DNA of 64,000 nt from Escherichia coli (GCF_001677475.2 NZ_CP015229.1); one strand, 5' to 3'. Positions 6,439 through 34,353 are shown, numbered from the stretch's first letter. Translations and numbers: made by a program. The notes: generated by a model from the letters alone, not told the origin.

Positions 6439-6448
6439 TATCCATTGT

Positions 6449-6490
6449 GAATGGTTCAAAATTGCTACAATTTTGAACCATTCCAGTTTT
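6449..6490 (+). terminator. Hairpin terminator after yqeG
   Basis: 15-bp perfect inverted repeat GAATGGTTCAAAATT / AATTTTGAACCATTC with 5-nt loop, followed by a T-rich tract. Confidence 0.6.
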
Positions 6491-6897
6491 CATAATGTTC
6501 ATTTGTTATTATTCCGCTCAATCACTTCTCTCGTCATATCCTAGTATTATCAGTTAGTTAAACACACAAAGAGATCTGAACATCTTAAATAAGACTATTT
6601 AAGATGCATAACTTAGATTCGCAAGATATCTTCTGGTCATTCAAAAACAATTTGCGATATAGATATTCTTATACCATGAGATAGTTATCTGGACCGCTCT
6701 CAACCATGCAAGATTAAATCAGTGAAACATAATCATATTTGATAACGAGAAATGCATTTTTAAATGCTTTACTCAGAATTATAGCAAATACAGATTAATC
6801 GCAATTTTTCCCAGCAAAATTACAAAATCATGGTGTATTGACATCATCAATAACCAATGAAATTATGCAATTATATACGGATAGGGAGGTTCTTAAC

Positions 6898-7530
6898 ATG
6901 GGGCTTTGTAGTCGTTATAAAAGTCTTACATGCAATAGTTGCTCAATGCATTGCCAAATAATGCCAGAAGAGTCACCGCGTTTGCAGTATTGCGCAAACT
7001 CGTGTTTTTGTATGTGGCCCGAAGAAAGTTCATATTTTAATCGTGGTGTGGTGGAAGGTATTTTAACAAAAAACCACAATGCGAGATTAAGCGGATATAT
7101 TTTTGTCGATTTTTCAGTAAGTTTTTTACGTCTATTCCTTGAAAAAGACTGGATTGACTATCTTGCAAGTACTGACATGGGGATTGTTTTAGTCAGCGAC
7201 CGCAATATGCAATCGTTAGCTAACTACTGGCGAAAACACAACTCTGCAATATCTGCTGTCATATATAATGATGATGGTCTTGATGTTGCCAATGAAAAGA
7301 TCAGACAATTATTTATTGGTCGTTATTTATCATTTACCAGAGGGAACACATTAACTCAGATGGAATTCACCATAATGGGATATATGGTTTCTGGTTATAA
7401 TCCATATCAGATTGCTGAAGTTCTGGATATGGATATCCGTAGCATCTACGCGTACAAGCAACGAATCGAAAAGAGAATGGGTGGTAAAATAAACGAGTTA
7501 TTTATTCGTTCACATTCGGTCCAACATTGA
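6898..7530 (+). CDS. yqeH: LuxR/GerE-type HTH transcriptional regulator
   Basis: 210 aa from ATG at 6898 with strong SD GGGAGG 8 nt upstream; C-terminal LuxR-type HTH; track ORF begins at an upstream TTG. Confidence 0.85.
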   Translation: MGLCSRYKSLTCNSCSMHCQIMPEESPRLQYCANSCFCMWPEESSYFNRGVVEGILTKNHNARLSGYIFVDFSVSFLRLFLEKDWIDYLASTDMGIVLVSDRNMQSLANYWRKHNSAISAVIYNDDGLDVANEKIRQLFIGRYLSFTRGNTLTQMEFTIMGYMVSGYNPYQIAEVLDMDIRSIYAYKQRIEKRMGGKINELFIRSHSVQH

Positions 7531-7863
7531 TACTCAACAATCTGCCAGAATCATACTCTGCTTATACGGGCATCTATTGAAATGCCCGTATTTTACAAAT
7601 AAGCAGTAACCCCAAGAGTAAACAACATGGTATTTAAAACCATCACACGAAAAATTCAGAAGCATTACGAAATATGAATTTACAAACAATAGTGGCATAA
7701 ATGTTAATCATGTTAATTTACGTAAAGTTTTACGTTGCGACATTAAAGCCTTATTTTAATCATTATGATAAATATAAAATTAATATATATTTATGCCGTA
7801 AATATCAATATACTTAGCAAACTATGTGATTTCCATTTCGATTGATTTAGTGTCTATTGACGT

Positions 7864-8673
7864 ATGTACTGGATTATTAACGATAATATCGAGTTCTGGC
7901 CTGAGCACCGAAAATTAATATCGGTACATAACGCCGATCTTAACGTCGTTCTGACAACGCCAGCCAGTCGTTGTTTATCACTTCTACTTGAAGCTTTTCC
8001 TGATGTGGTTGCACAACAAGATTTTTTCACCAGAGTCTGGGAAGAAGAAGGTATGCGTGTGCCAACTAACACGTTATATCAGAACATATCCATTATCAGA
8101 CGCGGATTTCGCGCTGTTGGTGATACCACCCACTCGCTTATTGCAACCGTGCCGAGAAGAGGATTCAAGATTCATAATGACATTAACATACAAAATCATG
8201 CAATAAACTCTTCAACAGACGCACATACACACAATGCCCCACCTGCCGTAAAAGGTAATGCGGGGTACAAAGAGAGCATTGGTGGCGCAAACAATTTCAA
8301 TAACAAAATCCTCAAACATATAAAAAGTTATCTAATTATGTTGAGCATATTTGCTATAGGCGTATATTCTGCACATTGGCTATGGAATAATAATCAACCG
8401 AAGCCATTCTTCAAGGATTACAAGACTGTTGCGGAAATTAATGGCTGCCATTTTAATGTGACAGAAGATACAATTGATGGGTTGAAAGAGTTCGATAAAT
8501 ATAAGACACGGATACTGGATTCGGGGATTAACTGTAAAAAATATCCGTGGTTATACTTCCCTCTTGCAAAATCCTCACCAGGGATGATTGTTATGGCATG
8601 CAATAAAAACTATAACCAACATGAAGTGGCAGGCTGTTTAACCCTGTCTTACCGTGAGGTTAATCGTGATTGA
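7864..8673 (+). CDS. yqeI: ToxR/CadC-like membrane-anchored winged-helix regulator
   Basis: 269 aa; N-terminal OmpR/CadC-type winged helix (TRVWEEEG...IATVPRRGF), one central TM segment (YLIMLSIFAIGVYSAHWLW), C-terminal periplasmic domain. Confidence 0.88.
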   Translation: MYWIINDNIEFWPEHRKLISVHNADLNVVLTTPASRCLSLLLEAFPDVVAQQDFFTRVWEEEGMRVPTNTLYQNISIIRRGFRAVGDTTHSLIATVPRRGFKIHNDINIQNHAINSSTDAHTHNAPPAVKGNAGYKESIGGANNFNNKILKHIKSYLIMLSIFAIGVYSAHWLWNNNQPKPFFKDYKTVAEINGCHFNVTEDTIDGLKEFDKYKTRILDSGINCKKYPWLYFPLAKSSPGMIVMACNKNYNQHEVAGCLTLSYREVNRD

Positions 8674-32191: not shown

Positions 32192-32428
32192 TTAGTCAGA
32201 TTTACGAATCATGAGACTTATGATGGATGGAATGAGGCTAAGCGGCCAGGTCAACCCTGTAATTACTGCAGCAAACAACCGATATGTTACTTTTTCTTCC
32301 GAGAAGATAAATATTAAGGTCGATGTCACAACCAGACCTATCAGGTAAGCTAACAGTAATTTATTGATCACTTTTACCTCCCTTACGATTTCTCTTTGAG
32401 CGGTCCTTTTAATCCAGGACCGCCTCAT
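32192..32428 (-). CDS. Candidate small inner-membrane protein (78 aa, two TM helices)
   Basis: ATG 8 nt after the stop of the upstream GH15-like ORF, same strand; two clear hydrophobic helices; weak SD; unverified. Confidence 0.35.
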   Translation of the reverse strand: MRRSWIKRTAQREIVREVKVINKLLLAYLIGLVVTSTLIFIFSEEKVTYRLFAAVITGLTWPLSLIPSIISLMIRKSD

Positions 32429-32436
32429 TATGAAAA

Positions 32437-34047
32437 CTATTTAATTCCCTCATCATTGATAAGATTGGACATTTCTTTCAACATAAGAGTCATTGAGGCT
32501 TTCGACCAGTTTAGCGGAATGATAGGGCTTGGCGCTTCATGCAAAGTTCCTGACTTGTGGATATAGTTATAGCTTTCGGGAAGTGCCATTTCAGGTACGC
32601 TCCTGCCATTTGCACCAATCATATTCTCGCCTGTTATTTGGGCCAATGATCTATTCATAAATTGCACTGAGTCATTCAAATATTCTTCTTTTCTTGATTC
32701 TTTATAAACAATTGCTGCTGATTTTGCATACCATGAGTCAAAAAACCATTCTGCTTCTGTTGATGGAATGAAGCTCTTTTCTCTTTTCGCATGTGAATTT
32801 TCATCAGTATCAGTTTTAATATCATTGAACCAAAAATTTGCCGACTGATAATTATCCTTCTCGTATCTTTTTATACCATACGGACCTGCTAGTTTTTTAA
32901 CTATTTTTAGAACTTGCTCTTTTCTTCTGGTGTTTATCTTTGAAAGATTTGCAGGATAAATAACATTAAGTAAGGCCGCATCAGCTTCTCTGTAATGTTT
33001 ATCTTTTTCCAGATAACCAGGGGATTCTCCCCCTAAATCAAGCTGTAGCGTTATTCTTTCATACCCTTTATCTATGAGATGGTTCAACCTCGTTGTTGAA
33101 AGAGTTTCATCCAGTTCATTGGCTTTAGCTTCGCGTAGTAAATCAGAAATAAAAAAAGAGTCTTTCTTCGAGAGTAAGTTCGACAAACGTTCCAGTCCCG
33201 AGGTCACCAGTGCAACGGAAGATGTGTTTAATCGGGCATCTTCTTCCCACGCTCCAGAATCTTCCATAACATAGAAATTGGCTTTATCCAGATAAGCAAC
33301 CAACAGCGCAATCGATTTTAATCGGTCACCTTTTTCCCAGTCTTCAGCGTTAATAGTACCAGTGTCGATTGCTTGTATAAGGAGATCAAGATAAAGACCT
33401 AAAGCATCATTTTGTTTATGGTTCCACAGCTGCGGCTTGCCTTCTTCCTGCACATCTGCCATCACGGGGGAGTTGCTGTCAAATCGGATATGTACAGCAT
33501 TCATTTGCCCAGGAATACCATCCAGTCGTTTTGGGTTGCTAATGACGTCCTGCATCCGCTTAATCTGGTCGGGCGTAGACATATAATCCCACAGAGTGAG
33601 CAGAACCTTTTTTGCGGCTACACTATTTCCCTGATCTGATACTAATGCCATATAGCCCCATAAACTATCCCTCAGCCAGACAGCATCATAGTGGGTTTCT
33701 GCCGCTGTTTTGTCATCTTCGAAAGTAGAAGCAAGAATAAATGTTCCCCAGGGTTTCTCCGTCAACGTTAACTTTCGTGTATTTTCTGTTAATGTTAACA
33801 ATCCTTGAATTTCGTCTTTGGTATAGTGGCTCTTTATTTCATTTTTTAATTTGGCTGAGTGAATCAGAAGACGATAATTAGGATACTTATCTGGATTTAA
33901 CGATAAATAACTTTTATCAGTTGCTGCCCCCGTGGAATTAAGAATGTTAAATACAGATTCACTCGTCACTTCTGCCCCTGTTGCCTGGCATGTGCCGCAT
34001 GAAAATATACCAGCGAGCAGAAGAGTTAATGTAGATTTCCCTTTCAT
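32437..34047 (-). CDS. Secreted/lipoprotein glycoside hydrolase family 15-like protein (glucoamylase/glucodextranase-like)
   Basis: About 536 aa; signal peptide with possible lipobox (LLLAGIFSC); GH15-like motifs YDAVWLRDS and acidic WEE segment (EDSGAWEEDARL); probably the intact form of the ygeP/ygeQ pseudogene region of K-12; start ambiguous (GTG at 34089 or ATG at 34059/34047). Confidence 0.6.
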   Translation of the reverse strand: MKGKSTLTLLLAGIFSCGTCQATGAEVTSESVFNILNSTGAATDKSYLSLNPDKYPNYRLLIHSAKLKNEIKSHYTKDEIQGLLTLTENTRKLTLTEKPWGTFILASTFEDDKTAAETHYDAVWLRDSLWGYMALVSDQGNSVAAKKVLLTLWDYMSTPDQIKRMQDVISNPKRLDGIPGQMNAVHIRFDSNSPVMADVQEEGKPQLWNHKQNDALGLYLDLLIQAIDTGTINAEDWEKGDRLKSIALLVAYLDKANFYVMEDSGAWEEDARLNTSSVALVTSGLERLSNLLSKKDSFFISDLLREAKANELDETLSTTRLNHLIDKGYERITLQLDLGGESPGYLEKDKHYREADAALLNVIYPANLSKINTRRKEQVLKIVKKLAGPYGIKRYEKDNYQSANFWFNDIKTDTDENSHAKREKSFIPSTEAEWFFDSWYAKSAAIVYKESRKEEYLNDSVQFMNRSLAQITGENMIGANGRSVPEMALPESYNYIHKSGTLHEAPSPIIPLNWSKASMTLMLKEMSNLINDEGIK

Positions 34048-34279
34048 AAAAGATTCCATCAATCGTTTGTTAAAAGCGTAGATAACCACTTATTTAACAA
34101 CTTGAAAATAAGGTATTTTACCTGGGTTGTTACAAATGAATTGCATTGCGTAAACGCTTTTATTTACAAAAAAATGGGGAAGCATTACGGCGATTGCGAA
34201 AAGTCTGAAGCGATTGAATTAAGATAATATAGAAAATCAGATACAACTAAAATGGCAGGTTGATGAGGTGAAGATAAAT

Positions 34280-34353
34280 TGGAGCGGGCGAAGGGAATCG
34301 AACCCTCGTATAGAGCTTGGGAAGCTCTCGTTCTACCATTGAACTACGCCCGC
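34280..34353 (-). tRNA. glyU: tRNA-Gly (anticodon CCC)
   Basis: Reverse complement reads GCGGGCGTAGTTCAATGGTAGAACGAGAGCTTCCCAAGCTCTATACGAGGGTTCGATTCCCTTCGCCCGCTCCA: 74 nt, cloverleaf-compatible, anticodon loop CTTCCCAAG, encoded CCA end. Confidence 0.93.

Follow-up and report, generated by a model that had tools for sequence, protein, structure and literature searches.

The AT-rich block between yqeG and the tRNA-Gly gene glyU in a 64,000-nucleotide stretch of Escherichia coli DNA (GCF_001677475.2, NZ_CP015229.1; hereafter the window, meaning the whole stretch) is ETT2, the second type III secretion island of Escherichia. The history that we consider probable, at about 0.8, is that of an old island with a single entry, erased mobility functions, and vertical inheritance accompanied by repeated deletion. 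Under this reading, a single entry would have brought ETT2 into an ancestor common to E. coli, E. albertii and the cryptic clades, and the functions that delivered it would since have been erased. The island would now behave like any other chromosomal segment, passing on vertically and disappearing through illegitimate deletion, and its position beside glyU would reflect a hot spot for foreign DNA across the Enterobacteriaceae. The finding itself is already described: the site of ETT2 beside glyU, its low G+C content and its attrition have all been published. ETT2 is a textbook case of an anciently acquired, decaying island, and the results leave the understanding of the island unchanged. The present analysis adds base-level boundaries (6613 and 34139) and a census of 5,426 complete E. 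coli genomes. It also speaks to a minor point on which published accounts differ: the acquisition of ETT2 has been placed either after the divergence of phylogroup B2 or before E. coli and E. albertii split, and the earlier date is favoured.

Composition, boundaries and identity of the block

The window runs in the order araE, kduD, kduI, yqeF, yqeG, long AT-rich block, tRNA-Gly(CCC), actS (ygeR) and xdhABC, and is 95–99% identical to complete E. coli genomes, with a best complete-genome match of about 99%. The G+C content (GC) per 1-kb window was 0.31–0.39 over most of 6.5–33 kb compared with approximately 0.50–0.54 in the flanks, and no 1-kb window outside the block fell below the inside median of 0.357. 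A maximum-likelihood model with three segments, fitted over 1–45000, placed the low-GC block at 6422–34280 (support intervals of 2 log-likelihood units: 6375–6454 and 34237–34287). The GC of the three segments was 0.482 (left), 0.357 (block) and 0.499 (right), and the gain over a single-segment model was 400 log-likelihood units. In composition, the block thereby begins at the yqeG stop codon and reaches the glyU 3′ end. Third-position GC (GC3) changed at both edges, falling from 0.50 in yqeG to 0.34 in yqeH on the left and rising from 0.35 in a glycoside hydrolase family 15 (GH15) gene to 0.48 in actS on the right; the coding DNA of the block ranged from 0.25 to 0.39 versus 0.48–0.59 in the flanking genes. 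The GC profile is not flat, and the abrupt compositional shift described in the first-pass annotation of this DNA is confirmed. The interval proposed there, 6440..34353, was correct in composition and coordinates, and the AT-rich block does face the tRNA 3′ end at 34280; its right limit, 34353, is the tRNA 5′ end, so the tRNA gene had been included. Two more GC dips (0.41–0.45) were observed at 40000–42000, near ygeV–ygeW, and at 50000–51500, in a right flank that otherwise lies at 0.50–0.54.

The left boundary (yqeG/yqeH) had been regarded as definable by composition only, but island-less genomes set it at 6612/6613. A 701-bp query spanning the yqeG–glyU site was compared with the 5,426 complete E. 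coli genomes. In phylogroup B2-type genomes such as Nissle 1917, yqeG is followed by 316 bp and then by glyU; homology between Nissle 1917 and the window continues until 6612 and resumes from 34139/34140. The junction was contiguous in 1,175 genomes, and every other genome splits at the same base. The comparison with genomes lacking ETT2 thus located an empty-type site and a presence/absence polymorphism, with an indel of 27,527 bp (6613–34139) whose GC is 0.358 compared with 0.500 for the remainder of the window. A 174-bp spacer after yqeG and a 140-bp spacer beside glyU are kept in the island-less genomes. The island is not flush with the tRNA gene, because the indel ends at 34139, 140 bp away; judged by composition, the block stretches from the yqeG stop codon up to the tRNA, because both spacers are AT-rich although they lie outside the indel. 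The yqeG gene is backbone and stands outside the island; it is conserved beside yqeF–kduI–kduD–araE, 0.3–9 kb from glyU, in Enterobacter, Leclercia and other Escherichia loci. Both spacers were sought in other genera to root the junction, with no detectable similarity, and the 140-bp spacer was found neither in E. albertii nor outside Escherichia. A terminator scan of the 140-bp spacer returned no consensus site.

The equally low GC of the two spacers (0.305 and 0.336) outside the indel is the one observation that would suit a native, AT-rich and vertically inherited region without horizontal acquisition. Against this stand 27.5 kb of coding DNA with the GC3 values given above, the absence of the block from the same locus in Salmonella, Citrobacter, Klebsiella and Enterobacter, and a content that corresponds to a T3SS (type III secretion system) of the Salmonella pathogenicity island 1 (SPI-1) family. 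A native origin is effectively refuted by this evidence and retains next to no probability. The block is a horizontally acquired island beside the glyU 3′ end, as the first-pass annotation had supposed, and the island is ETT2.

Reviews describe ETT2 as a 29.9-kb cluster with 36.9% GC adjacent to glyU (PMC3977695, PMC11068852), and the published 36.9% compares with a chromosomal average of 50.8%. The block agrees in location (yqeF–yqeG–island–glyU–actS–xdhABC), in low GC (0.358 for 6613–34139) and in content. The last comprises an SPI-1-family T3SS apparatus and the regulators yqeH, yqeI, ygeH and eivF, as judged by RefSeq annotation of 97–99% identical DNA, Pfam on the open reading frames (ORFs) of the window, and Pfam at the matching positions of E. 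albertii. DNA 95–99% identical to the block and annotated as T3SS genes was present in 4,141 E. coli genomes. The features are listed below with coordinates in the window and strand in brackets (a dot where no strand applies).

5209..6438 (+): yqeG, amino acid permease, left backbone flank outside the island; RefSeq annotation of 97–99% identical DNA; GC3 0.50, host-like
6439..6612 (.): left spacer, 174 bp, GC 0.305; alignment with the Nissle 1917 site; also in island-less genomes
6613..34139 (.): ETT2 island by presence/absence, 27,527 bp, GC 0.358; Nissle 1917 junction alignment, 1,175 contiguous-junction genomes, RefSeq genes of the closest genomes
6838..14729 (.): left arm, regulators and accessory genes; ORFs, RefSeq names, Pfam (GerE, Trans_reg_C, TPR_3); GC3 0.25–0.39
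14919..31846 (.): T3SS apparatus genes, then the regulator eivF; ORFs, RefSeq names, same order in E. albertii with Pfam T3SS families
32192..32371 (−): small GhoT/OrtT-family ORF (membrane toxin-like) in the right arm, between eivF and GH15; RefSeq annotation of L003, ORF present in the window, Pfam Toxin_GhoT_OrtT at the same E. albertii position
32437..34047 (−): GH15 gene, last island gene on the glyU side; Pfam Glyco_hydro_15 E = 5.6e-6, RefSeq name; GC3 0.354
34140..34279 (.): right spacer, 140 bp, directly downstream of glyU, GC 0.336; common to E. coli genomes without the island
34280..34353 (−): glyU, tRNA-Gly(CCC); ARAGORN, the sole tRNA found; 3′ end at 34280 faces the island
34280..34297 (−): 18 nt at the glyU 3′ end, attachment core of integrative elements in other strains, unoccupied here; repeats in 88COLEC and 82.0311
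34432..35187 (−): actS (ygeR), right backbone flank; GC3 0.48; adjoins glyU in 80 of 80 species loci

The left arm carries yqeH (LuxR-type), yqeI (winged helix), yqeJ, yqeK, an ORF at 10152–10643, ygeG (tetratricopeptide-repeat chaperone-like), ygeH (HilA family), ygeI, a lytic transglycosylase gene and a LuxR-type regulator gene. The apparatus genes begin with orgA, sctJ, sctI, the needle gene, prgH, a helix-turn-helix regulator gene and a gene for an InvH-like lipoprotein (InvH Pfam match), and continue with sctU, sctT, sctS, sctR, sctQ, eivJ (SpaN), spaM, sctN, sctV, sctW and sctC, followed by eivF.

Mobility traces in the window and integrative elements at glyU

In 4900–35300, tblastn, phmmer and profile searches of the six frames, covering all 621 stop-to-stop ORFs of at least 25 aa, revealed no remnant of an integrase, recombinase or transposase. 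The queries were three glyU integrase families and two family profiles, all derived from integrases that lie beside glyU elsewhere. The best match, in the yqeF–yqeG intergenic region outside the island, was noise (E = 0.03, 7.6 bits). Pfam searches of the ten island ORFs without T3SS annotation revealed no recombinase or transposase domain. As a positive control, the same queries detected integrase fragments down to 67 aa beside glyU in other species. The absence of mobility genes noted in the first-pass annotation is hence upheld, and a translated search has turned up no integrase remnant. Since no recombinase is encoded, an excised or circular form of ETT2 is expected to be absent.

That the left boundary has no direct repeat of the tRNA 3′ end was likewise confirmed. 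The glyU 3′-end 18-mer and 25-mer had no second copy in the whole window at up to three mismatches, and local alignments of the tRNA or the right boundary against 5000–7500 and 6400–7000 scored no better than shuffled sequence. Smith–Waterman comparisons of the left and right boundaries, direct and inverted, and of the tRNA against 5000–7500 or the whole island were equal to those of shuffled sequence. An apparent pairing of 6613–6660 with 34140–34215 in a multiple alignment was rejected as an alignment artefact, given boundary scores at the shuffled level.

The glyU gene is an active attachment site, and ETT2 is without every signature that the elements using it leave. Three integrase families insert at the last 18 nt of glyU in other strains and species. 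E. coli 88COLEC carries a 9.5-kb element between glyU and ETT2, with a 647-aa integrase and an exact bounding 18-bp repeat, TGGAGCGGGCGAAGGGAA; E. coli O19:H7 strain 730V1 has a 547-aa integrase beside glyU; and in E. coli 82.0311, which has the B2 junction, the element is P4-like, measures about 19 kb, encodes a 404-aa integrase and has a 17/18 repeat. In both cases with a surviving distal end (88COLEC and 82.0311), the 140-bp spacer stays on the distal side, with yqeG or ETT2. Among 80 species-representative glyU loci from one genome-collection scan, an integrase or a fragment of one (down to 67 aa) lay within 650 bp of glyU in 19, and the glyU–yqeG cargo varied from 0.3 to 9 kb. ETT2 was absent from the glyU locus of Salmonella, Citrobacter, Klebsiella and Enterobacter. 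Fragments of P4-like integrases (67–242 aa) were observed beside glyU in Salmonella enterica subsp. diarizonae, Pseudocitrobacter and one Enterobacteriaceae isolate (L043), and the decayed copies adjoining glyU are as follows.

L013:11126-11326: decayed P4-like integrase fragment
L043:10972-11274: decayed P4-like integrase fragment
L049:11541-12266: decayed P4-like integrase fragment
L053:11205-11900: decayed P4-like integrase fragment

In a contig labelled E. coli SCPM-O-B-8794 (L010:6121-15965; ActS 93% identical), 9.8 kb downstream of glyU showed no similarity to the window; this segment matched neither ETT2 nor yqeG nor the three integrase families.

These observations bear on the view that ETT2 was itself integrated at the glyU 3′ end by an integrase, with the integrase gene later lost, the distal attachment site eroded, and the 140-bp spacer being either old island DNA or the remnant of a later element. 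Such an origin would fit the proven use of the last 18 nt of glyU by three integrase families, the decay of integrases to fragments of 67–242 aa beside glyU in Salmonella diarizonae, Pseudocitrobacter and others, and an AT-rich composition that reaches the tRNA 3′ end. It is difficult to reconcile with the lack of any integrase fragment or tRNA-derived repeat in 4900–35300, given that these searches do detect fragments of 67 aa at other loci. Moreover, island-less genomes also contain the DNA abutting the tRNA (34140–34279), which is displaced to the distal side by the integration of real elements, and in E. albertii unrelated DNA lies between the tRNA and ETT2. We regard this origin as doubtful, though it keeps a share of the probability. 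The classic tRNA-associated arrangement suggested by the first-pass annotation applies only in a loose sense: the compositional block does lie beside the glyU 3′ end at 34280, but the indel stops at 34139, and the intervening 140 bp occur in island-less genomes and follow the yqeG/ETT2 side when integrase elements insert. The original mode of insertion is not recoverable from the present sequence.

Age of ETT2 and its loss within Escherichia

ETT2 is ancient, as the first-pass annotation had proposed, but it is not fixed, and it is under loss by deletion in many strains. E. albertii has the order actS–tRNA-Gly–GH15–ghoT–eivF–sctC and onward, the same as in the window. Its type strain keeps only the two island ends, matching window positions 6579–6859 and 33773–34121 at 69–77% nucleotide identity. 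The cryptic Escherichia sp. E1V33 keeps yqeH–yqeI–yqeJ–ygeH beside glyU, with an alignment unbroken across 6612/6613, and in this genome yqeH (85–94% identity) has diverged to the same extent as the core gene yqeG (79–97%). Both E. albertii and E1V33 thus hold ETT2 at the same locus and have the left junction in common with the window, and their ETT2 divergence is at least that of the flanking core genes. The shared junction and this degree of divergence argue for one acquisition, which would have preceded the split of E. coli, E. albertii and the cryptic Escherichia; Ooka 2015 likewise places the acquisition before the E. coli/E. albertii split (PMC4700944). The left arm of E1V33 (L009:11118-15392) was observed to be a mosaic, with a core-like YqeH (94% amino-acid identity) beside YqeI (71%), YqeJ (68%) and YgeH (61%), and nucleotide identity falls to approximately 50–60% in the 3′ half of yqeI.

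The retention of ETT2 DNA was assessed in the same 5,426 complete E. coli genomes, with retention of at least 80% measured over 6613–31600. Some ETT2 DNA was present in 4,141 genomes and none in 1,285, and only 943 kept at least 80%. Together with the 1,175 genomes that have the contiguous site, these counts contradict the description of ETT2 as a fixed acquisition. K-12-type and other partial deletions of ETT2 were seen in the census. In Escherichia sp. MOD1-EC7003, position ~6658 is joined to ~34210 at a GCGAT microhomology, and this genome keeps 46 bp of island DNA that are absent in B2 and is without 70 bp that are kept in B2. Independent deletions with different endpoints were found in three other Escherichia lineages.

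The island-less allele of B2 is most likely a secondary deletion of 27.5 kb and not the ancestral empty site, because the left junction is shared with E. albertii and E1V33 and the divergence of ETT2 is at least that of core genes. The opposite order deserves consideration: ETT2 could have come in after B2 diverged, at a point 140 bp downstream of glyU and by a route not specific to the tRNA, and then have spread by homologous recombination of the flanks, leaving the B2-type site ancestral. One identical junction in 1,175 genomes and an island end (34139) no more than 15 bp from the point where E. coli/E. albertii homology stops would suit this order, and it has been argued in the literature, where the citing passage of PMC7058095 attributes to Ren 2004 that B2 never had ETT2 and that the acquisition came after B2 diverged. 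The shared left junction and the divergence of at least core level, which is the opposite of what recent spread would predict, speak against it, as does the dating of the acquisition before the species split by Ooka 2015 (PMC4700944); in addition, the independent complete deletions that end elsewhere demonstrate how readily pseudo-empty sites form. We therefore judge an ancestral B2-type site to be unlikely.

Several points nevertheless weigh against single early entry followed by vertical inheritance and deletion. The B2 junction is a single clean allele, and its right endpoint at 34139/34140 is only 15 bp from the end of E. coli/E. albertii homology (~34124); this proximity could be a matter of chance (roughly one in six, with a 190-bp interval available for the endpoint) or could mark the true island end. 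The genes yqeI, yqeJ and ygeH are far more diverged in E1V33 (61–71% amino-acid identity) than core genes, and the high divergence of these internal genes could reflect the replacement of alleles instead of plain vertical descent. Among the 80 species loci, E. fergusonii is absent, so one outgroup is missing. A B2 lineage that never had ETT2, in the terms in which PMC7058095 cites Ren 2004, also keeps some slight probability.

The tRNA gene of E. albertii is relevant to the same question. The glyU sequence is identical in 70 loci from Escherichia, Salmonella, Citrobacter, Klebsiella and Enterobacter, and the tRNA-Gly(CCC) between actS and ETT2 in E. albertii differs from it at 19 of 74 positions. 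Nothing corresponding to the flanks of this tRNA, about 65 bp upstream and 267 bp downstream, exists in E. coli or the other species loci. In E. coli genomes nothing matched the segment; phages gave generic tRNA-Gly similarity only, and exact matches were absent from viral contigs. Its copies, matching window 34125–34360, are as follows.

L088:9515-9925: divergent E. albertii tRNA segment
L008:2450-2860: divergent E. albertii tRNA segment

The foreign-looking E. albertii allele and the resumption of E. coli homology within 15 bp of the B2 junction are the basis for a further idea, namely, that ETT2 arrived with its own tRNA-Gly or attachment region 140 bp downstream of the native glyU, that the foreign tRNA then disappeared from E. 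coli and the native one from E. albertii, and that B2 represents a true ancestral empty site. If this were true, the yqeG–glyU boundary would preserve a trace of the arrival of ETT2; we consider it a long shot.

ETT2 of the window among known systems

In the window, sctQ (22622–23569) and eivJ (23569–24465, 298 aa) were uninterrupted, and in L002 and L003, the closest complete genomes, the annotation shows the same genes as frameshifted or split. Because these two ORFs are uninterrupted, the ETT2 copy of the window may be intact, a state also seen in E. albertii and ST69/042-like strains. On the glyU side of the island, the GH15 gene (window 32437–34047; compare L090:10001-11581) has a homologue 77% identical at the same place in E. 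albertii. A 61% homologue was also observed in Yersinia enterocolitica, where a T3SS translocator gene lies approximately 10 kb away, a hint that the GH15 gene travels with SPI-1-family T3SS islands.

Compared with the published E. coli ETT2, the island of the window has the same locus (yqeG to glyU), the same genes in the same order, a similarly low GC (0.358 here versus 36.9%) and a DNA identity of 95–99% (PMC3977695, PMC4700944). Nothing essential is different, and the window copy appears uninterrupted, including eivJ and sctQ. The integrase islands at glyU in 88COLEC, 730V1 and 82.0311 share the tRNA gene with ETT2 and sit between glyU and yqeG or ETT2. Their integrase genes lie 90–165 bp from the tRNA, whereas ETT2 has no integrase; a distal repeat (18 bp or 17/18) survives in 88COLEC and 82.0311, two of the three, whereas ETT2 has none. 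Unlike these islands, ETT2 is set off from the tRNA by the 140-bp spacer common to island-less genomes. Salmonella SPI-1 is located between fhlA and mutS and not beside a tRNA gene. As background, SPI-1 and ETT2 belong to the same T3SS family (SPI-1/Inv-Mxi-Spa type), and both are AT-rich and without an integrase; the glyU locus of Salmonella was observed here to carry no ETT2 genes.

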